Below the pieces are notes generated by a model. That model was given only the letters and a program-made list of their open reading frames with translations. It did not search any database and was not told where the DNA came from. A stretch of 37,263 nt of DNA from a virus (lineage: Duplodnaviria; Heunggongvirae; Uroviricota; Caudoviricetes). Made by a program: the position numbers and the translations under genes. The stretch lies in the IMG/VR virus record IMGVR_UViG_2778261172_000006, positions 1-37,263 of that record; one strand, 5' to 3'. Shown piece after piece: positions 4,113 through 28,677 of the stretch. Numbering within the stretch: position 1 is the stretch's first letter; the number at the start of each line of letters is the position of its first letter.

Positions 4113-4316
4113 ATGAACAAAAAGACCTGGTTTCGCGCATACATGTGGGCGCTGGTATGCGTCCTCGTTTCTCTCATTCTGTATGCAGGACTACTCCCCC
4201 GAATGATTTCATCAGACAGCTCCTTCCTGGTATTGCTGGGCATTTTCATTGCCATGCTGTACCCGGCAGGCGTTGTTCGCCTTTTCAGTAAGTACATCAA
4301 GGAAATCAAACAATGA
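4113..4316 (+). CDS. small two-TM membrane protein (67 aa)
   Basis: Two hydrophobic helices (YMWALVCVLVSLILYAGLL and FLVLLGIFIAMLYPAGVV); stop overlaps the SPFH gene start (ATGA at 4313). Confidence 0.55.
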   Translation: MNKKTWFRAYMWALVCVLVSLILYAGLLPRMISSDSSFLVLLGIFIAMLYPAGVVRLFSKYIKEIKQ

Positions 4317-5143
4317 AGAAATTCAAACTCTTTCAGATTATCCCGCTTTTTGCCGCCATCCTGCTGGCTGGTTGCGATCGCGTTGAGCCAGGTAATGTGG
4401 GCATCAAAGTCAACAAACTGGGCGACGACAAAGGCGTCGGCGAAGTGGTCGGCGTTGGCCGCTACTGGACTGGCTGGAATACAGAGGTTTACATCTTCCC
4501 AACCTTCAAACAAATGAAGACCTACGATGAGCCGTTCAGCTTCCAGATGAGTGACGGCACAACCATCGGCTATCACATCGGCGTGGCTTACAAGGTTGAT
4601 CCATCCAAAGTTACCACAGTGTTTCAGACCTACCGCAAAGGCGTGGATGACATTACCGACACTGACCTGCGCCAGAAGATCGCCGACGCACTCAACCGAC
4701 TGGCCAGCAAAATGACCACCGATAAATTCATCGACGGTGGCAAGTCTGAACTGCTGGATTCAGCACTTAAAGATATTCAGGCAGAAATGACACCCATCGG
4801 CATTCAGGTAATGAGCCTCTCTTATGTCGGTAAACCGGAATACCCGCCAACCGTGATCGACAGCATTAATGCCAAAGTCACAGCGAACCAGAAAACCCTG
4901 CAACGCGAACAGGAAGTAAAACAGCGCGAAGCAGAAGCCAACATGTTGCGCGCAGAAGCTGCCGGACAGGCTGATGCCATTCGCACAAAAGCCCAGGCTG
5001 AAGCCGACGCCATTCGTTTACGCGGTGAAGCTCTGCGCCAGAATCCCGGCGTTATGGAGCTGGAAGCAATCAACAAATGGAACGGCACGCTGCCGCAATA
5101 CATGACCAGCAATACCGCTGTTCCGTTTGTTCCGGTGAAGTAA
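4313..5143 (+). CDS. SPFH/band-7 (prohibitin-like) domain lipoprotein
   Basis: N-terminal signal with lipobox LLAGC; central SPFH-like core; C-terminal Ala/Glu/Gln/Arg-rich coiled-coil (QREQEVKQREAEANMLRAEAAGQADAIR...). Confidence 0.75.
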   Translation: MKKFKLFQIIPLFAAILLAGCDRVEPGNVGIKVNKLGDDKGVGEVVGVGRYWTGWNTEVYIFPTFKQMKTYDEPFSFQMSDGTTIGYHIGVAYKVDPSKVTTVFQTYRKGVDDITDTDLRQKIADALNRLASKMTTDKFIDGGKSELLDSALKDIQAEMTPIGIQVMSLSYVGKPEYPPTVIDSINAKVTANQKTLQREQEVKQREAEANMLRAEAAGQADAIRTKAQAEADAIRLRGEALRQNPGVMELEAINKWNGTLPQYMTSNTAVPFVPVK

Positions 5144-5311
5144 TTAAACCCGGCCAGTGAAAATCGCTGGCCGGAGCAGTATCAGGATTTTTTAGTATGC
5201 CGTTCTCACAAAAAAACCGCTTGCCATGCCGCAATCAGTCAGGTTACATTTCCGCTGCACCTCATAAAACGGGTGCCGGGATTTCCACCCCGCTGACAAC
5301 TACAGCGCACA

Positions 5312-5331
5312 ACCGCGCCAGCGGTTTTTTT
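5312..5331 (+). terminator. candidate intrinsic terminator
   Basis: ACCGC-GCCA-GCGGT hairpin directly followed by seven T residues. Confidence 0.5.
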
Positions 5332-5510
5332 GTGCGTACTGTATCGCCACGTCTTTTTCGCACACGAATTATGGTGGGGCGTACGGGGCCGACTTCGGTC
5401 GGGCCGGGTTCTGTAGTTGCCGGTTGTGGAAACCCTGTACGTCTCACCACCCCGAGTTTTCCACCTCTGGATGGTGAGTTTTCAAAACTTGCAACTACAG
5501 AGGCCACACC

Positions 5511-6185: not shown

Positions 6186-9008
6186 ATGACGACAGAGTAC
6201 ATCAGGGACTGGCAACAACCGCGCCACGCAGTAGGGCGTGAAGGAACGGGGATCCCCACTCCTGAATCCGCGCTTTCCTCCTGGCTGGATGCCTACCGGG
6301 CAGAGAACGAGCGCCACCAGGAAAAGGCTGATGCGGCGTTCTCCGCCACGCCACTGGGCAACCTGATTAATAAAAGCCTGGACGCACAGGAAAAACAGGA
6401 CAAAACCATCACGCTGGCAGGAGAAGCCAGAAGACAGACACGCGGCACGGTGGATGAAGCCATGGCCTCGCTGCGCCTGCTGCCGTCCTATCTGCGCGAT
6501 CCGCTTATTCGCCACCTCTCCTTCCTGCGCAAAAAACAGGAAGCCGATCTCCGGAAAGAAAAAAATGCCTGGCAGGCAGAAAACTATGCACGCGGAACCC
6601 TGCGCAAGATATTCGTTCGCATTAACCGTGCCGACAGTCGCTGGCTGACACCGGGTTATCGCTCCCTCGCCGGACGTGAGCGTCTGGATGATTTGCTTTA
6701 CCTGCCGCAGCTCAATAAACACCAGATACAGACACTGGCCACCATGACAGCGGCAATGTTCAGCAGCACCTTCGAAACACTCTGTGATGGTTTCGGTGCC
6801 AAAGATGGCGAGCTGACCATGGAGGTGGCACTGAAGGCGTATCAGATGCTGGCCCGCATGGCGTTACACCTGCACACCGTGCCGCCGCATTACGAAGCAC
6901 TGACAACAGACAAAGACCGGAGGAACGAACCGGACACGGAGCTGCTGCCGGGCGCAATCCTTCGTCTGACCTGTGCGGAATGGTGGAAACGCAAACTGTG
7001 GCTGTTACGTTGCGAGTGGCGGGAAGAACAACTCCGTGCCGCCTGTCTGGTTTCCAGAAAAACATCGCCCTATCTGAGCCAGGACGCGTTAAGCGAGTTT
7101 CGCGCACAGCGCGAGAAAACACGCGATTTTCTGAAAAGTTTCATGCTGGAAAACGAAGACGGGTTCACGATTGATCTCGAGACAGTGTATTACGCGGGAG
7201 TAAGTAACCCGGTTCACCGTAAGGCAGAAATGATGGCCACCATGAAGGGGCTGGAACTTCTGGCCGAAGCCCGTGGCGACAAAGCGGTGTTTCTGACTGT
7301 CACCTGCCCGTCAAAATACCACGCCACAACGGAGAACGGTCATCCGAACCCCAAATGGAACGGGGCCACCATGCGCGACTCCAGCGATTACCTGGTTAAC
7401 ACGTTTTTTGCGGCGGTCCGCAAAAAACTGAACCGCGACGGTCTTCGCTGGTATGGCATCCGCACGGTGGAGCCTCACCATGACGGCACCGTGCACTGGC
7501 ATATGATGGTCTTTGCTCATCCGGAAGAAATCGACAGCATCGTGGCCATCACCCGCGATATTGCCATTCAGGAAGACCGCCACGAGCTGGGTGATGATAT
7601 TACCCCACGCTTTAAGGTGGAGTATGTCGACGGCTCAAAAGGCACACCAACCAGCTACATCGCCACCTACATCGGAAAGAACCTGGACAGCCGCGCCGTG
7701 GATGGCATCGACCCGAAAACGGGCAAGCCACGCGTTGACCACGAAACAGGAAAATCAATGACCGAGAGCGTGGAACGCGCCATCGGCTGGGCGCGCCTTC
7801 ACCGGGTCCGCCAGTTCCAGTTCTTTGGCATTCCCTCCCGTCAGGTGTGGCGTGAACTCCGCCGCCTTGCCAGCCAGATGGCACGCAACCCGGAAGGCCC
7901 GCAACGGCTGAAGAATGACGCAATGGATGCGGTACTCGCTGCCGCCGATGCCGGGTGTTTTGCCTCCTACATTGAAAAACAGGGCGGCGTACTTGTTCCA
8001 CGCAAAGACTACCTGATTCGCACCGCCTACGACCTCGCAGATGAGCCGAACGATTACGGCGAACAGAGCGTACAGATTTACGGGATCTGGTCACCACTCA
8101 TCGGGGAATCCTCCCGTGTGTGCACGCACCCGGATAACTGGAAGCTGGTAAGACGTAAACCGGAAGCGGAAGACAACACCCGCGAAAATGGTTTTGACCT
8201 TCAGGGCGGCCCTGCCGCCCCTTGGACTCGTGGCAATAACTGTCCCCGTGTACAGGAAACGGACAACAACGGGACAGAACAGCCGGAAGAACGGCCAGCA
8301 CCGTGGCCGCAGCTTCCTGACGGCATTGAAGTGAACGAATGGATGCGCTCACTGAAACGGCACGAACGCCGGGCGCTGATGCGTTCGCTTCGTGACAAAC
8401 AGGCAAAAAACAGCAGTGATGAAATGCAGAGCTGGACACAGAGCCGCAAACAGCAGCGGCCTTTGCCTGATAACCACGAATTACTCGCTAGAGAATGGCG
8501 GGAGTCTGCTGAATCTCTCGGCCTGCATATCGGTGAACAACAAATGCAGCACCTGTTACGGGGCGGCAGTCTGTACGTTGACGGCAGCATCATTGCACCG
8601 CAGGGATTTGAAATTGTACGCAAACCGGATACCCGCCCGGACAGCCGAATCACGCAGCTCTGGCAACGCCTGAGCCGTAATCACGGCGTAAGCAGCACGG
8701 AGATCCGCCATAACCCGGTCGCCAGCTATCTGGAACAGCTGGGGGCATCAGACCCTGAAGCCGCCGCACGCCTGGCATCCACACTTCAGCAGGACCAGAA
8801 CACCATGAAAACACCCGTTACCGTGCTTTCTGACATGCTGCGCGCCATCCGCGACGCAGAGCACGCACAGAGAATCAGTGAAACCACTGAACGCGCCCGC
8901 CGCAAAGCAGACCTGCTGCGGGGTGGCCTGACCAGTGGAAACAAAAAACAGACAGAAACGGGATTCACAAATCCCGTAAATGAGCAAAAAACGCGCCGCG
9001 ATATATGA
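6186..9008 (+). CDS. A: replication initiation endonuclease, P2 gpA family, with long C-terminal extension
   Basis: 940-aa ORF; HxH-type motif (TVHWHMMVF) and P2 A-like core around residues 330-600; position between early genes and the cargo region. Confidence 0.88.
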   Translation: MTTEYIRDWQQPRHAVGREGTGIPTPESALSSWLDAYRAENERHQEKADAAFSATPLGNLINKSLDAQEKQDKTITLAGEARRQTRGTVDEAMASLRLLPSYLRDPLIRHLSFLRKKQEADLRKEKNAWQAENYARGTLRKIFVRINRADSRWLTPGYRSLAGRERLDDLLYLPQLNKHQIQTLATMTAAMFSSTFETLCDGFGAKDGELTMEVALKAYQMLARMALHLHTVPPHYEALTTDKDRRNEPDTELLPGAILRLTCAEWWKRKLWLLRCEWREEQLRAACLVSRKTSPYLSQDALSEFRAQREKTRDFLKSFMLENEDGFTIDLETVYYAGVSNPVHRKAEMMATMKGLELLAEARGDKAVFLTVTCPSKYHATTENGHPNPKWNGATMRDSSDYLVNTFFAAVRKKLNRDGLRWYGIRTVEPHHDGTVHWHMMVFAHPEEIDSIVAITRDIAIQEDRHELGDDITPRFKVEYVDGSKGTPTSYIATYIGKNLDSRAVDGIDPKTGKPRVDHETGKSMTESVERAIGWARLHRVRQFQFFGIPSRQVWRELRRLASQMARNPEGPQRLKNDAMDAVLAAADAGCFASYIEKQGGVLVPRKDYLIRTAYDLADEPNDYGEQSVQIYGIWSPLIGESSRVCTHPDNWKLVRRKPEAEDNTRENGFDLQGGPAAPWTRGNNCPRVQETDNNGTEQPEERPAPWPQLPDGIEVNEWMRSLKRHERRALMRSLRDKQAKNSSDEMQSWTQSRKQQRPLPDNHELLAREWRESAESLGLHIGEQQMQHLLRGGSLYVDGSIIAPQGFEIVRKPDTRPDSRITQLWQRLSRNHGVSSTEIRHNPVASYLEQLGASDPEAAARLASTLQQDQNTMKTPVTVLSDMLRAIRDAEHAQRISETTERARRKADLLRGGLTSGNKKQTETGFTNPVNEQKTRRDI
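8956..8980. repeat. 25-bp palindromic element, copy 1 (AAACGGGATT-CACA-AATCCCGTAAA)
   Basis: 8-bp inverted repeat ACGGGATT/AATCCCGT with 4-nt spacer, inside the 3' end of A. Confidence 0.7.
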
Positions 9009-9084: not shown

Positions 9085-10044
9085 ATGAAAATTTGTATCG
9101 ACGACGGCTCCACCAACATCAAGCTGGCATGGACTGAGAACGGCGAACGCCGCAACGCCATCAGCCCGAACAGCTTCAAGTCGGAATGGTCTGCGCCGTT
9201 CGGTGGCACGCAGCCCGCGAACTACATGCTTGATGGCGTGCGCTATGGTTTTGATCCGGTCAGCGATCGCTTTGTCCAGACGACCGACACGCAATACCAG
9301 TACAGCGATGTGAATGTCATTGCCATTCATCACGCGCTGGTCAAATCAGGCATCACGCCACAGGAGGTGGATGTGGTTGTCACCCTGCCACTGAGCGAGT
9401 ATTTCGACACAAACGCACAGCCGGACATGGCCAACATCAACCGCAAAAAAGCGAACGTTATGCGCCCGGTGGAGTACCAGAACGGCGAAGCATTCACTAT
9501 CCGTAACGTGCGGGTTATGCCTGAATCCATTCCGGCTGGCTTTAAGGCACTGGCTGACATGAGTCCGTTTGAATCCCTGCTGATTGTGGATTTAGGCGGA
9601 ACCACGCTGGATGTGGCAAAGGTTCAGGGGCAACTGGCAGGTATCAGCCAGGTGTTTTGCGATCCACACGTAGGCGTTTCCCTGATGGTCGATGCCGTGC
9701 TGTCGGTGATGGCCGCTAACGGTATGCGTACCAGTCACCACATCGCCAATACCATTATCGAACATCGCCATGATGAAGCCTGGTTGCGCCAACACATCCA
9801 CAATGACGCGCATTACGCCAGCCTGATGGCGGTTATTCGTGAAAAGGAAGAAACACTGAAACAACGCGTGATCCGCGCGCTGGCGGGTTTTTCGGGTTAC
9901 GGACGGGTGATGGTTGTCGGTGGCGGGGCGGAGATTGTGGCACCCGCTATCCGCGAAGCCTGCGGAGTTAATGCGACTTTCATCGCGGACGGGGTGCCAC
10001 AGTTTGCTCTGGTTAATGGGCTGTACGCAATGGACAAGGAGTAA
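9085..10044 (+). CDS. parM: ParM/StbA-like actin-type segregation ATPase
   Basis: 319 aa; N-terminus MKICIDDGSTNIKLAW, SDVNVIAIHHAL, VMPESIPAG, DLGGTTLD and VVGGGAE match remembered plasmid R1 ParM motifs along the whole length. Confidence 0.85.
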   Translation: MKICIDDGSTNIKLAWTENGERRNAISPNSFKSEWSAPFGGTQPANYMLDGVRYGFDPVSDRFVQTTDTQYQYSDVNVIAIHHALVKSGITPQEVDVVVTLPLSEYFDTNAQPDMANINRKKANVMRPVEYQNGEAFTIRNVRVMPESIPAGFKALADMSPFESLLIVDLGGTTLDVAKVQGQLAGISQVFCDPHVGVSLMVDAVLSVMAANGMRTSHHIANTIIEHRHDEAWLRQHIHNDAHYASLMAVIREKEETLKQRVIRALAGFSGYGRVMVVGGGAEIVAPAIREACGVNATFIADGVPQFALVNGLYAMDKE

Positions 10045-10048
10045 ACCA

Positions 10049-10363
10049 ATGACGACACCAACCAGACGGATAAGTTTCTATCTGAAGCCCGCCGCCGTCA
10101 ATAGTGAACGGAAGGCGTGTAATTACCTCGACAGCCTGCCAGCCTCTGAACGCAGCCGCGCGCAACGCGCGGCCTTTCTGGCCGGGCTGGCACTCATAAA
10201 ACGCGATCCTGCATTTGCCTATTGGTTGGCCGAATGGCCGGAAGAAGGAGCTGCGCCAGCAAAGAATAATATTCAGAGTAAATATGCCAGCACACCTGCC
10301 ACCGGAAGCAATCACAGCACTAGCGAGATAAGAAAGAACATTCAGTCATTTTTCCCGGAGTGA
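10049..10363 (+). CDS. parR: ParR/StbB-like centromere-binding adaptor
   Basis: ATG at 10049 with AAGGAG RBS; RRISFYLKP...CNYLDSLPASERSRAQRAAFLAGLAL parallels R1 ParR (RRTIAFKLNP...CDTLDSIPQGERSRLNRAALTAGLAL). Confidence 0.75.
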   Translation: MTTPTRRISFYLKPAAVNSERKACNYLDSLPASERSRAQRAAFLAGLALIKRDPAFAYWLAEWPEEGAAPAKNNIQSKYASTPATGSNHSTSEIRKNIQSFFPE

Positions 10364-10382
10364 AAACAGGAGAGGTGCATCT

Positions 10383-10814
10383 ATGGCAACTATTCCCAAA
10401 AAATGGTTACAACGCAAAATCGCAGACCTTGAATCGTGTCGTGAAGACATCCCATTTGGCCTTGATGAAAACGATCACAATATGTTAATCGCACTGAAAA
10501 TCGCACTCACATCGCTGGAAGCGAAACCTGTTGCATGGACTGATGATGAGGAACTGCGTGATGTCAAGCAGTATGGTTTCGGTGAGATATTTCAGTGTCC
10601 GCCAGATAAATACGCGGATCCGCGCCGTGTTATCCCTATGTATCAAGAGCCGCCAGCGCCAGCAGTACCAGATGGGCTGGTTAGAGCGGTGCGTTTCTAT
10701 GAACAGGTTAAGCGTGAAAATCCGCCAGCCGAAACCGGAGCATGGAAAGACGCTGTTGACTGGGTGCTCAAAGAGGCCTGCCAAGTTGTAAACACTGGCA
10801 TCAAAGGAGACTGA
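10383..10814 (+). CDS. hypothetical protein (143 aa)
   Basis: ATG with GGAGAGG RBS; contains motif IALKIALTSLEAKPVAW. Confidence 0.55.
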   Translation: MATIPKKWLQRKIADLESCREDIPFGLDENDHNMLIALKIALTSLEAKPVAWTDDEELRDVKQYGFGEIFQCPPDKYADPRRVIPMYQEPPAPAVPDGLVRAVRFYEQVKRENPPAETGAWKDAVDWVLKEACQVVNTGIKGD

Positions 10815-10815
10815 T

Positions 10816-11025
10816 ATGGCTATTGCCGCAAGTTACACCATGCATCTCTATTGTGATTGCCTCCAGTGTACAGATGGCAAATATAAGTCGCCAGACTTCG
10901 GTGAGTATATAGGTACGTCATGGGCTGGCTGTGCAAAAGAGGCGCGCAAGGATGGCTGGCGAATAAGCAAAGACAAAACGCGTGCTTTTGCGCCCGGGCA
11001 TAAAGTTTTGAGGATTAACAAATGA
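10816..11025 (+). CDS. hypothetical small Cys-rich protein (69 aa)
   Basis: ATG 1 nt after upstream stop; CDCLQC...C pattern. Confidence 0.5.
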   Translation: MAIAASYTMHLYCDCLQCTDGKYKSPDFGEYIGTSWAGCAKEARKDGWRISKDKTRAFAPGHKVLRINK

Positions 11026-11282
11026 CCACTTTAACCGACAAAGAACTGATTAAAGAAATCAAAGAGCGCATAGGCAGCCTAGACGTGAGAGACAATATTG
11101 AACGCCGTGCTTATGAAATTGCTCTGGTATCGCTGGAAGCAGAGCCAGTAGCATGGATGCATGTAAATAACGGCATCGGAATACCAGCAATAACAAGGAG
11201 TAAAGAGGTTGCAGAGAGTTGGTTATCAAAAGGCTGGTATGTCCAACCCTTACATCTAGCCCAGCCTGCATCAAAGCTATAG
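11022..11282 (+). CDS. hypothetical protein (86 aa)
   Basis: ATGA overlap with upstream ORF; shares motif IALVSLEAEPVAW with the 10383 ORF. Confidence 0.5.
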   Translation: MTTLTDKELIKEIKERIGSLDVRDNIERRAYEIALVSLEAEPVAWMHVNNGIGIPAITRSKEVAESWLSKGWYVQPLHLAQPASKL

Positions 11283-11292
11283 AAATGAGCCA

Positions 11293-11319
11293 AAACGCCC
11301 TCTTCCAGGGCGTTTATTT
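11293..11319 (+). terminator. intrinsic terminator after the parMR-linked operon
   Basis: 9-bp stem AAACGCCCT/AGGGCGTTT with 5-nt loop followed by TATTT. Confidence 0.6.
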
Positions 11320-11322
11320 CAA

Positions 11323-11349
11323 TGCACAATAGTGCACAAATTTGCACAA
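11323..11349. repeat. three TGCACAA heptamers phased at exactly 10 bp (11323, 11333, 11343)
   Basis: Direct reading; a fourth copy at 11415-11421 and a GGATCCGT direct repeat at 11393-11411 lie nearby. Confidence 0.7.
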
Positions 11350-11848
11350 TTTTTTTGAACGACTTTTTGCCCTTCCGGCCCGCGGGGCGACTGGATCCGT
11401 CAAGGATCCGTGCGTGCACAAAAAAACGCGCTTTTTCTGCGCGCAGGTGACGGGGGAACAGCCCGCGTTTCAGGGGGTAAATAGCATTCCCTGAACGATG
11501 TCGCAGCGACACAACAGAATGGCTGTCTTTCTCACGCTGAGCGTAAAAAAGACGTGAGGGCTTTTGATTTGATGGGGTGGCAGATAAGGCCGTCAAAATC
11601 GCACTGAGGCGGCGAGAACATGCAGTCAGCGCAGTGGGATTGCGTAAGAGTCTGACCGTCGATGATGGAAATAAGCAGGAAAGCGTCGTGAAATTATCTG
11701 ACTGATACAGGAGCTGGAGAGTCGGGGCATAAATTTTTTATGCCCCGGCGAAGCAGCAGACAAGCGAAGCGCGTCAGCGATACGGCACCTTGCCGACCAT
11801 ACTTCATAAGTGCAAAATACGAGCAAAGAAATCAATGGAGGCTGTCTT

Positions 11849-12373
11849 ATGGTCATTAATTACAAGCAGTTAAGAGAAAAACGGGAGCAGGTAAAGGAGA
11901 GCTTTCGCCGCAATGAAGATCTGACCCCGCTTGTACGCCTTGCCCAGGGCATTGTTGACGCTTATGAAATCTCGCTGGAGCTGCCATCACAGACCTGGAC
12001 AGATAGCGACGGTAATCGCCAGCATTACATTTCATGCGGACTGGAAGCAGCCGAAGGATTTCGCAGAATGCCTTTATCCCAGATCCCTGCCGCAACCCCC
12101 AAAGCAAGAGGCAGCAATGATGAGCGAAAACTGACTTTCAGCATTGAGACAGTGGTTGACGACACACCTGGCGAAGTCGCGTTCGTGCACACTCCTGTTT
12201 CGATCGCAATGTATAACGATGAAATACAGGTTCGCGTTAATAATAATATCGTGCCACTTAAAGAAGGTAATTCACCCTACACCACCGTTTGTGAAGCCAT
12301 TCAATATTACGTTCTCTCTGAAATTGATAATCTCAAGCCTGACGGCACCCAGAAAATGGTTCAACTCTGGTAA
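11849..12373 (+). CDS. hypothetical protein (174 aa) between cos-proximal region and portal gene
   Basis: ATG at 11849 with GGAGG 8 nt upstream; convergent with Q and ending in a strong hairpin terminator. Confidence 0.55.
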   Translation: MVINYKQLREKREQVKESFRRNEDLTPLVRLAQGIVDAYEISLELPSQTWTDSDGNRQHYISCGLEAAEGFRRMPLSQIPAATPKARGSNDERKLTFSIETVVDDTPGEVAFVHTPVSIAMYNDEIQVRVNNNIVPLKEGNSPYTTVCEAIQYYVLSEIDNLKPDGTQKMVQLW

Positions 12374-12379
12374 AAAGGA

Positions 12380-12404
12380 CAGCCCCATCACGGGGCTGTT
12401 TTTT
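12380..12404. terminator. bidirectional intrinsic terminator between the 174-aa ORF and Q
   Basis: CAGCCCC-ATCA-CGGGGCTG hairpin flanked by AAAAA upstream and TTTTTT downstream. Confidence 0.65.
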
Positions 12405-13434
12405 CATCAAGAAGAGCATAAGAGTTAAAACGGATCACCTCTTCGCCAAGCCAGTCATTGATATGCTTCATGGCCTCCATGACGGGCATCAGCTCGTTAA
12501 TTGCGTAAACCCGCGCGGCCTTCTCCACATCACCAAACGCACTTTTTTCACCCGGCATCGCCCCCATCAGTTGCGGCGGAACGCGGTGCGCAGCCAGCAC
12601 GTCATCACGGGATGCCGCCTTAACATTCATGAACTCATCTTTTGCGGTGATCTGCTGGAACGGCAAAATTTGCACACCTTCTTTGCCCCCGTTGGGCGCA
12701 TGAATGAGCACGTTTTTAAACGCACCACCACCACGTGCACCCTGTAACGTTTCTTTCAGGGAGTCCATGCTTTCGCGGTTTACCTGTGCTGCACCGATGT
12801 AGATGATGCACCCGGCGTGGGATCCGTTGTCGTAATACAGTTTTCTGAACATGTCCGCCGAATGAGACAGGCTGGCCGAGAGTAATGCGCCGAGATATTC
12901 CGGCATGCCGTAGATTTCCTGGTTAATATCCGGATTCATCAGGTGGCACACTTTGCCAGGGCGAAACTGGAACGCGTCCTTGCCATCCTGCACATACCAC
13001 CATGATTCAAGATCGCTTCCGCGTCGCATGTATTTCGCCAGTGCGTGCCGTAATTTAAGCGGTTCGCCGAGCATATTGCTTCGAAGCTCAAGGAATGCGT
13101 TACCGAACACAAACCAGTCCAGCGCCAGCGCCGAGAAATCCTGCCGGGAAAGCAGCGGGTGCGGGATGTAGCAACCGAGTAATACATTGCGCTTAAAGTA
13201 AAGCGCAGACTGATGCCAGGACGTTTGCCGGGCAGCTCTCGCCAGACCGTACCAGTCCACCGGGGTTTCATACCACCGCCCGTTATCAGCACAGTACATA
13301 TTGTCCAGCAGGTCATGCCCGGTCAGGCGATAAGGACCATCAAATGTGAATGCACTGAGCGATGATTCTTTCCTGAGCGCATCAGCGAGATCAATGCGTG
13401 AACTCATGCGCACTTTTTTATTTTTTCTGCTCAT
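12388..13434 (-). CDS. Q: portal protein (P2 gpQ family)
   Basis: 348-aa ORF; start overlaps P stop on the minus strand; P2 Q-like sequence and position next to terminase. Confidence 0.9.
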   Translation of the reverse strand: MSRKNKKVRMSSRIDLADALRKESSLSAFTFDGPYRLTGHDLLDNMYCADNGRWYETPVDWYGLARAARQTSWHQSALYFKRNVLLGCYIPHPLLSRQDFSALALDWFVFGNAFLELRSNMLGEPLKLRHALAKYMRRGSDLESWWYVQDGKDAFQFRPGKVCHLMNPDINQEIYGMPEYLGALLSASLSHSADMFRKLYYDNGSHAGCIIYIGAAQVNRESMDSLKETLQGARGGGAFKNVLIHAPNGGKEGVQILPFQQITAKDEFMNVKAASRDDVLAAHRVPPQLMGAMPGEKSAFGDVEKAARVYAINELMPVMEAMKHINDWLGEEVIRFNSYALLDEKTAP

Positions 13435-19221: not shown

Positions 19222-19275
19222 GTCGCAGGCTTAAAGCCGGTAATCACCATAAAAATCATTCACAGAGGTGACGAA

Positions 19276-19821
19276 ATGAAATCGAAAGACGAAATTTTTG
19301 ATGTCGTTCTTGGCAAAGAAGGCGGCTACGTCAATCACCCGGATGACAGAGGCGGTCCGACAAAATGGGGTATCACTGAAAAGGTGGCACGGGCACACGG
19401 ATACCGTGGCGATATGCGTGATTTAACGCGCGGACAGGCACTGGAAATCCTTGAAGCTGATTACTGGTACGGACCGCGTTTTGATCAGATAGCGAAGCTG
19501 TCCCCGGATATTGCCGCAGAACTGTGTGACACCGGAGTAAATATGGGGCCGTCTGTGGCAACCAGAATGCTTCAGCGCTGGCTGAACGTATTCAATCAGG
19601 GCGGGAAACTGTATCCCGATATGGACACAGACGGACGCACTGGCCCACGCACGATTAATGCATTGCGTGCATATCTGGAAAAACGCGGTCGGGACGGCGA
19701 GATGGTGATGTTAACAGCACTGAACTGTACACAGGGTGAACGCTATCTGGAGCTGGCGGAAAAACGCGAAGCCAACGAGTCGTTTGTCTACGGCTGGATA
19801 AAGGAACGCGTGGCAGCATGA
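19276..19821 (+). CDS. endolysin, GH108-like with peptidoglycan-binding region
   Basis: Motif EGGYVNHPDDRGGPTKWGIT near the N-terminus typical of GH108-type phage lysins; GAGGTG RBS. Confidence 0.75.
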   Translation: MKSKDEIFDVVLGKEGGYVNHPDDRGGPTKWGITEKVARAHGYRGDMRDLTRGQALEILEADYWYGPRFDQIAKLSPDIAAELCDTGVNMGPSVATRMLQRWLNVFNQGGKLYPDMDTDGRTGPRTINALRAYLEKRGRDGEMVMLTALNCTQGERYLELAEKREANESFVYGWIKERVAA

Positions 19822-28035: not shown

Positions 28036-28089
28036 TGGCCGTTTCCGGCCTGCATGGCATGATTTGCGCTTTTGGACGGGAGATTCAGC

Positions 28090-28677
28090 GTGCTGATTGG
28101 CTATGTAAGGGTATCAACAAATGACCAGAATACAGACCTGCAACGAAACGCTCTTGTTTGTGCAGGATGTGAACAAATATTTGAAGATAAATTAAGCGGG
28201 ACAAAGACAGACCGACCGGGATTAAAACGCGCTTTAAAGCGCCTTCAAAAAGGTGACACGCTGGTTGTCTGGAAACTGGATCGCCTCGGGCGAAGCATGA
28301 AACATCTGATTTCTCTCGTCGGGGAACTACGGGAGCGAGGAATTAATTTTCGCAGTCTGACCGACAGCATAGATACATCTTCTCCAATGGGGCGTTTTTT
28401 CTTCCACGTGATGGGTGCCCTGGCTGAAATGGAACGTGAATTAATTGTTGAACGTACACTGGCCGGACTGGCGGCAGCACGCGCACGGGGGCGCACAGGC
28501 GGACGTCGACCGAAGCTGACAAAAGAACAGCATGAGCAAATAGCAAGGCTAATCAAAAACGGGCACGACAGAAAACAACTGGCAATAATTTACGGCATTG
28601 GTATATCGACGATTTATCGTTACCACCCCGCAGGAGAATCAAGGGGAACAATTGAGAAGAGTCAGGAAACAAAATAA
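28090..28677 (+). CDS. serine DNA invertase (Gin/Pin/Cin/Hin family)
   Basis: GTG start after GGGAG; VLIGYVRVSTNDQNTDLQRNALVCAGCEQIFEDKLSGT... is near-identical to the remembered Mu Gin sequence, including the catalytic Ser region and C-terminal HTH. Confidence 0.95.
   Translation: MLIGYVRVSTNDQNTDLQRNALVCAGCEQIFEDKLSGTKTDRPGLKRALKRLQKGDTLVVWKLDRLGRSMKHLISLVGELRERGINFRSLTDSIDTSSPMGRFFFHVMGALAEMERELIVERTLAGLAAARARGRTGGRRPKLTKEQHEQIARLIKNGHDRKQLAIIYGIGISTIYRYHPAGESRGTIEKSQETK

Follow-up and report, generated by a model that had tools for sequence, protein, structure and literature searches.

A PHROG 5091 gene beside the portal gene of a P88-like Escherichia coli prophage is a probable mobile accessory gene of temperate phages

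Background

P2-like prophages are a major reservoir of defence and accessory genes in Escherichia coli, and several new systems have already come from the interval between the replication gene A and the portal gene Q (gpA-gpQ), a documented cargo and defence hotspot of P2 (PMC9122126; PMC13586616; bioRxiv 10.1101/2024.10.15.618418). A partition system is found in about a quarter of P2-like phages (Rousset et al. 2022, PMC9122126). In P2 itself, Q abuts cos, as noted in the first-pass annotation of the sequence described here; in the P2 record, cosL spans 1-19, the terminator tQ 160-181 and Q 187-1221.

Another described class of phage accessory genes is that of the morons, which are said to have been defined by Hendrix and colleagues. 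In lambdoid phages, the moron slots lie between Q and S (the stx position) and between Rz and cos (the bor position).

Here we describe a 174-codon open reading frame (ORF) located between cos and Q in a P2-like prophage. "The window" denotes the whole stretch of DNA analysed, 37,263 nucleotides of IMG/VR record IMGVR_UViG_2778261172_000006. The protein (WP_000236495 / WP_000236489) is listed as 'hypothetical' in Table S5A of Rousset et al. 2022, within StbA + Plasmid_stab_B arrangements (PMC9122126), and a literature search under RefSeq accessions, phrog_5091 and phage names found no study of it.

Results and discussion

Organization of the prophage

The window represents a complete P88-like prophage (Xuanwuvirus, Peduoviridae, P2-like) of E. 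coli. From left to right, it contains the integrase gene, an early region, gene A (6186-9008), a ParM/ParR pair and three small ORFs, followed by a conserved non-coding block, the 174-aa ORF, the late genes Q, P, O, N, M and L and, beyond gene L, genes for lysis, baseplate, tail fibres and tail. The partition pair, located directly after gpA (9085-10363, plus strand), consists of ParM (StbA_N and ParM C-terminal domain) and a ParR-like protein (Plasmid_stab_B), in agreement with the reported frequency of such systems in P2-like phages. The three small ORFs (143, 69 and 86 aa; 10250-11280, plus strand) represent window-specific cargo that is mostly missing in five related genomes. The 143-aa and 86-aa cargo proteins have N-terminal PHROG families 660, 5117 and 60 in common, which points to a paralogous domain.

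Several other segments distinguish this prophage. Its early region encodes an SPFH/Band-7 protein (4313-5143, plus strand) that, of the genomes compared, is common to P88 only. Rfam matches above the gathering score, to the isrK Hfq-binding RNA (5257-5331, 63.6 bits) and the C4 antisense RNA (5367-5454, 80.5 bits), lie shortly before the derepression and gpA region (5257-5454, plus strand), which suggests that this P2-like prophage carries an antisense immunity element of the P1/P7 type. The lysis cassette appears to have been swapped: the segment at 19250-19820 (plus strand), missing in all five genomes compared, carries a GH108 + PG_binding_3 endolysin (19276-19821), in place of which P88, PhiR44_2, Chuche and the element of the ST131 lineage have an M15 peptidase. 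A resolvase-type DNA invertase (28072-28677, plus strand) adjoins opposed tail-fibre segments, forming an invertible host-range cassette.

Coding capacity and expression signals

The ORF occupies positions 11849-12373 on the plus strand (ATG at 11849-11851, TAA at 12371-12373) and encodes a protein of 174 aa (19.8 kDa, pI 5.0) that belongs to PHROG 5091. It is convergent with the portal gene Q (12388-13434, minus strand), with 14 nt between the two stop codons, so the first-pass annotation had placed it correctly in the gap between the cos-proximal region and the portal gene. A program-made list of ORFs contained a longer version of 187 aa starting from GTG at 11810. We prefer the start at 11849 because the homologues all begin with MVINY/MxITY and because GGAG and the ATG are invariant in the upstream alignments. 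The strong ribosome-binding site claimed for the gene is indeed there, in the form of a Shine-Dalgarno sequence, GGAGG, at 11837-11841 (plus strand), 7 nt before the ATG.

The substitution pattern shows a genuine gene, one that is under purifying selection. Pairwise dN/dS values (Nei-Gojobori) are 0.03-0.11 among the E. coli alleles and 0.17-0.19 for divergent homologues, and the 174-codon frame is intact in 40 of the 42 cassette-bearing loci (16 protein alleles, with one truncated allele found). This signature of selection argues that the ORF is neither decaying nor a chance reading frame; a lack of conservation, which the first-pass annotation had named as a finding that would speak against its proposal, was not observed. 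As a non-coding control, we used the annotated 42-aa ORF with a GTG start at 11577-11705 (plus strand), a hypothetical protein in P88, PhiR44_2 and P88_4B11. Among its 20 alleles, substitutions are distributed 89/97/85 by codon position, codon differences are non-synonymous in 158 cases and synonymous in 73, and one allele contains an internal stop; this ORF is probably non-coding.

A candidate sigma-70-like promoter was identified upstream of the gene (11790-11818, plus strand), with the -35 element TTGCCG at 11790-11795, a 17-nt spacer and the -10 element CAAAAT at 11813-11818. It matches the consensus in 8 of 12 positions, which is under the threshold of the promoter scan, and was not called by it. 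In upstream alignments of five lineages (60-100% protein identity), CTTGnC-N17-CAAAAT, GGAG and the ATG are invariant and the spacer is variable, a phylogenetic footprint from which we infer the activity of a modest, putative sigma-70 promoter. No Ogr-type late-promoter dyad (TGT-N12-ACA) was detected upstream of the ORF, but this pattern is uninformative, as the window contains 6 such dyads vs 9.7 expected. Rfam gave no match within 11200-12500.

Downstream, the ORF and Q have in common an intrinsic terminator at 12379-12405 (stem 12379-12386/12392-12399, T-run 12400-12405, A-run 12372-12376). Its hairpin (12379-12399) folds at -19.9 kcal/mol (z = -6.0) on the plus strand and at -16.8 kcal/mol (z = -4.1) on the minus strand. 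Given the A-tract upstream, TTTTTT downstream and a stable fold on both strands, the terminator is bidirectional, as had been proposed.

A presence/absence cassette at the portal gene

Pairwise alignment with phage P88 delimits a cassette of 628 bp (11778-12405), in place of which P88 has the 14 bp GATGTGGGCTGGGT. The cassette comprises the promoter-like element, the Shine-Dalgarno sequence, the coding sequence, the terminator and the last five codons of the portal gene, the stop codon of which (12388-12390) lies inside the terminator loop. Because the indel boundary falls inside the portal gene, the portal protein ends in EKTAP in the presence of the ORF and in TQPTS in the ORF-less P88; save for these last 5 residues, the portal proteins of phages with and without the ORF are 98% identical. 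The cassette flanks are 94-98% identical between relatives that have the 628 bp and those that have the 14 bp. P88 has kept a remnant of the right arm of the terminator, GGGCTG, which hints at deletion. However, the left junction, GCGCGTCAG, is the same for three different sequences that abut it, which suggests that alleles are exchanged by flanking recombination.

We found the cassette in 397 of 5426 complete E. coli genomes, always on the chromosome and always beside the portal gene. The flanking junction is present in 1146 E. coli genomes, so the cassette occupies about one third of the junctions and is missing in about two thirds. Many of the 397 carriers are clonal (ST131, O111) and have degraded prophages, so this prevalence overstates independent retention. 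In a spread sample of 60 rows of ranked hits, the 56 full-length rows fell into two junction lengths and no other, 561 bp (37 rows) and 1175 bp (19 rows); within this sample, the exact site of the ORF exhibits only two states, empty or occupied by the 174-aa ORF, with no alternative cargo. Such variability among related prophages, which the first-pass annotation had proposed to examine, is also seen among P88-like phage records, 4 of 16 of which have the ORF and 12 of which do not. PhiR44_2 is an example of a phage with the ORF. The ORF is missing in P88, phiSM, Chuche and P2 itself. P88 and phiSM are active phages, inducible or plaque-forming (PMC6456863), and Chuche is an environmental isolate; the ORF does not behave as a conserved structural or packaging gene of this lineage, the other outcome that would have counted against an accessory gene.

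The ST131 elements with the ORF are tail-less remnants that end after the lysis genes and whose deposited sequences also include host DNA (11-18 kb, from dmsABC to ycaO); their records represent prophages identified in silico (bioRxiv 10.1101/2022.06.29.498070). In the O111 copy, gpA is truncated. These ST131 and O111 loci are L061 (PV468777), L057 (ON470599) and L008 (NZ_AP019761).

When the whole window was compared by blastn with three genomes that have the ORF and two that lack it, the cassette was the sole segment common to all of the former and missing in both of the latter. Head modules are 96.4-97.9% identical to those of the window in both groups of phages alike (blastn). No conserved adjacent partner gene was detected that could make up a toxin-antitoxin (TA) or two-gene abortive-infection module with the ORF; its 42-aa neighbour occurs without it in P88. 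These genome comparisons show that the ORF is dispensable for lytic growth and virion assembly. Its description as a candidate accessory gene thus holds: it is missing in viable relatives, varies among junction genomes, and forms a self-contained unit with no co-segregating gene.

Position relative to cos

The conserved non-coding block to the left of the cassette (11320-11777, 460 bp) is 90-98% identical in more than 1100 E. coli genomes. It contains three TGCACAA repeats (11323, 11333 and 11343) in 10-bp phase, which recall the TGCAT repeats located to the right of cos in P2. In the linear record LR595891, the two ends correspond to 11367|11368 of the window and, as in P2, the portal gene begins 402 nt from the left end. 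A second candidate for cos is the 18-mer GGTGACGGGGGAACAGCC at 11446-11463, which is exactly conserved in Salmonella relatives. Locating cos by similarity to the P2 19-mer was abandoned, since the 13/19 match at 11446 is no better than chance sites elsewhere. The block also includes a perfect dyad, TGTCGC-A-GCGACA, at 11499-11511 and a hairpin with an 11-13-bp stem and no U-tract at about 11721-11749, which adjoins the portal stop codon in the ORF-less P88. Its 96-bp core was not found in additional elements such as P4-like satellites of E. coli.

Both candidate positions put the ORF between cos and Q. The first-pass annotation had assigned it to the variable cargo locus of P2-like phages. This assignment stands insofar as the gpA-gpQ hotspot is documented and the presence of the ORF is variable, but the hypervariable cargo occupies the part from gpA to cos, whereas the ORF lies on the opposite, Q side of the cos block, at a two-state site.

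The PHROG 5091 family and its genomic contexts

The ORF had been described as an orphan, which proved incorrect. Residues 1-168 of the protein match profile positions 1-164 of 164 of PHROG 5091 with E = 7.7e-67. The sensitive profile search proposed in the first-pass annotation, run exhaustively, retrieved 87 representatives (clusters at 50% identity, E <= 1e-3) from diverse temperate phages. About 75 of the 87 are full length (155-200 aa, 21-33% identity), and all 41 aligned family members match PHROG 5091. Word-index searches had retrieved only about 25 clusters from E. coli, Salmonella and Trabulsiella; in light of the exhaustive search, this picture of a tiny Enterobacteriaceae-only family is an artefact that arose because the word-index searches are of limited sensitivity. 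PHROG 5091 carries no annotation, is not covered by a Pfam or NCBIfam model and contains no representative that has been studied.

Members of the family were found in six genomic contexts. The gene adjoins the portal gene, always in convergent orientation, in P2-like prophages of E. coli, Salmonella and Morganella, and the upstream cargo differs each time. In Trabulsiella, it is found just after gpA together with HicB and Phd-Fic cargo. In lambdoid phages, it occurs either between the antiterminator Q (or NinG) and the holin, in the stx-type slot with terminators on both sides, or between the lysis cassette and the terminase; one lambdoid homologue is followed by a terminator 20 nt past its stop codon. 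A further P2-like prophage has the gene 12 nt after ogr and beside HicAB. Finally, in a myovirus baseplate region, the gene is found between a gpV-like spike and a gpW-like protein. The lambdoid and myovirus relatives are co-directional with the late genes. Taken together, the six contexts are the pattern that a mobile accessory gene would leave, rather than that of a component tied to one structural module.

HicA/HicB genes adjoin two distant members of the family, at the Trabulsiella locus (L005, 6738-8053), which also has a Phd-Fic pair, and at the post-ogr locus (L070, 5725-6359). The cargo slots may simply coincide, or the association may be recurrent.

Within P2-like relatives, the ORF is located 21-188 bp from the 3' end of the portal gene and diverges with it, portal identities of 75/74/69% being paired with ORF identities of 62/59/55%. 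At one locus (L009), a 55%-identical ORF allele and a 69%-identical portal gene together abut a P88-type cos block at the breakpoint GCGCGTCAG, to the left of the ORF. We attribute the co-divergence to physical linkage of the two genes on the Q side of a recombination anchor at cos.

Predicted structure of the protein

No match to Pfam, NCBIfam or PADLOC was obtained for the protein or, across searches, for 9 and 41 family members; weak scores for Complex1_LYR (E = 0.16) and PADLOC SduA (E = 0.035, in 1 of 9 members) were dismissed as noise. The earlier statement that the protein has no recognisable motif is thus accurate with regard to these libraries and fails in that it is a full-length member of PHROG 5091. 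Neither a transmembrane segment nor a signal peptide was detected in the 174 residues.

Structure prediction, also proposed at the outset, yielded a confident fold and no convincing structural relative. The AlphaFold model based on the 41-sequence alignment (pLDDT 89.3, pTM 0.79) consists of helices 5-22 and 26-42, an antiparallel sheet across residues 49-135 and a helix at 143-159; a model from nine sequences has the same topology. Conservation mostly concerns structural or aromatic residues (Y39, S42, L43, L45, W50, G55, Y60, V61, F97 and T101), and only S42 and L43 are invariant in the 41-sequence alignment. Weak fold matches, which we regard as structural likeness only, were to the FP domain of PI31/Fbxo7, actin capping protein, the C-terminal domain of TnsE and DarA of phage P1. 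The first two of these are protein-protein interaction modules.

Two other leads were rejected. Profile hits in the PDB to designed helical-repeat proteins (E down to 5e-10) reflect a repeated helix N-cap motif (GNSP...), not homology. An E2/UBC- or RWD-like fold with a catalytic Cys148, which weak hits to BRE, FANCL, Cap2 and CENP-P and a 'VPL...SPY..VC' motif had suggested, was discarded upon an hhalign comparison with UBE2D2 (probability 0.6%) and because position 148 is S or T in several family members.

Proposed function and alternative explanations

That the ORF is a mobile accessory gene appears highly probable at the least. We give roughly even chances to a fuller statement, according to which it is a moron-type mobile accessory gene and its product a non-enzymatic binding protein made by the prophage and engaged in phage/host conflict. 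The gene would then form an autonomous transcription unit between the cos block and the portal 3' end (putative sigma-70-like promoter, strong Shine-Dalgarno sequence, coding sequence and bidirectional terminator) and would be expressed from the prophage, possibly with a boost from late read-through in other phages. The product, predicted to be a small acidic cytoplasmic alpha/beta protein in which a helical hairpin at the N terminus is followed by an antiparallel sheet and, at the C terminus, another helix, would act by binding another macromolecule rather than by catalysis, since neither a transmembrane segment nor a signal peptide is present and invariant catalytic residues are missing. It might serve as a conflict or conversion factor that excludes or interferes with competing phages or benefits the lysogen in some other way; P2 Tin, which binds a phage protein, provides a model for the proposed role in exclusion. 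Membership in a widespread, hitch-hiking accessory family makes the ORF a fair candidate for such a factor. Several observations weigh against a role in conflict: the putative promoter has only 8/12 consensus matches, no similarity to a known defence, exclusion or anti-defence protein was detected in comparisons with PADLOC and Tin, the site is two-state, without the cargo turnover typical of defence hotspots, and the ORF co-diverges with the portal gene within P2-like phages.

Alternatively, the protein could belong to the lytic cycle, as an accessory product that is made mainly late and possibly packaged in the virion, where it would function as an injected or late counter-defence factor or as a modulator of assembly or lysis. 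We consider this rather unlikely. Distant relatives are indeed co-directional in late units or head them (between Q and holin, lysis cassette and terminase, or gpV and gpW, or 12 nt after ogr), a placement that fits a role in the lytic cycle as well as one in the lysogen. However, in the window the ORF is convergent with the P-Q late operon, is isolated by a hairpin on either side and is preceded by a conserved putative sigma-70-like promoter of its own. Phages without it are viable, and their portal proteins are 98% identical to those of phages with it, apart from the last 5 residues. Furthermore, the family is found beside unrelated modules (portal, lysis, baseplate, ogr), so that no fixed structural partner is apparent. 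The constant location near the 3' end of the portal gene among P2-like relatives (21-188 bp away) and the co-divergence with the portal gene might be taken to indicate a structural or packaging gene conserved in the lineage, e.g. a portal- or terminase-associated factor, but linkage explains the co-divergence, as illustrated by the L009 breakpoint. With the ORF missing in about two thirds of the E. coli P88-like junctions and in functional phages, placed outside the late operon in the window and present in lambdoid phages far from the portal gene, this is the least probable of the readings considered.

The listing of the protein within StbA + Plasmid_stab_B arrangements (Rousset et al. 2022, PMC9122126) and the location of ParM/ParR 1.5 kb upstream of the ORF in the window are what would be expected if it were part of a multi-gene system with the partition module or other genes of the gpA-to-cos hotspot. 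Yet P88 and Chuche have ParM/ParR without the ORF, many loci with the ORF have different upstream cargo or no ParM, for example L017, L021, L031, L040 and Salmonella loci that encode an HTH-M78 peptidase or YafO. The cos block and hairpins separate the ORF from the cargo, and distant homologues reside in unrelated contexts. Judged by this lack of co-occurrence, such a system appears largely refuted, and we regard it as very improbable. A shade more improbable still is that the ORF is a selfish remnant, decaying or without function, for which one could cite the absence of a known domain, the many carriers with degraded prophages and the one truncated allele. Against it stand the dN/dS values of 0.03-0.19 and the 40 of 42 intact copies, full-length homologues down to 21% identity with conserved motifs in many phage types, the AlphaFold pLDDT of 89 and the 42-aa neighbour, which illustrates a non-coding pattern unlike that of the ORF.

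Returning to the proposed binding protein, it is possible, though we would sooner expect otherwise, that PHROG 5091 as a whole represents a single-protein conflict module, new and widespread among temperate enterobacterial phages, which would effect exclusion, defence or counter-defence by protein binding and would have a fold with no close structural relative. Its small size, its non-enzymatic nature and its location on the 'wrong' side of cos in P2-like phages would have kept it out of the defence catalogues. The family has changed place among at least six accessory slots of temperate phages, P2-like, lambdoid and others, and its carriers make up about 7% of complete E. coli genomes, including the ST131 and O111 lineages. 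With a single 525-bp gene and natural pairs of phages with and without it that have about 97% identical head modules, the ORF is a cheap and well-defined target. Work on it could give a function to the whole PHROG; otherwise, it would be one more ordinary hypothetical moron.

Comparison with known systems

The conversion genes of the P2 gpA-gpQ interval (old and tin), Z/fun and the hotspot cargo are, like the ORF, located near cos, non-essential, variable and organized as transcription units of their own. The ORF agrees with the hotspot cargo in lying between gene A and Q beside cos and in varying among close relatives. It differs from that cargo in being on the Q side of the cos block and not the gpA side, in occupying a two-state site and not a hypervariable one (the variability is found upstream, from gpA to the cos block), and in encoding a protein that has neither an enzymatic nor a transmembrane domain; its sequence showed no similarity to Tin (E = 0.33). 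An essential head or packaging gene of P2-like phages would be found in all functional members, which is not the case for the ORF.

Its function would be unrelated to that of any characterised moron. In organization, however, the cassette resembles the morons of lambdoid phages, in which a promoter, an ORF and a terminator are inserted with precise junctions between two conserved genes, with the difference that its promoter is putative. It is a precise indel between conserved genes, it has its own terminator, its product is assigned to PHROG 5091 by a significant full-length profile match, and the family is found at six sites, with distant homologues of the ORF located in exactly those lambdoid moron slots.
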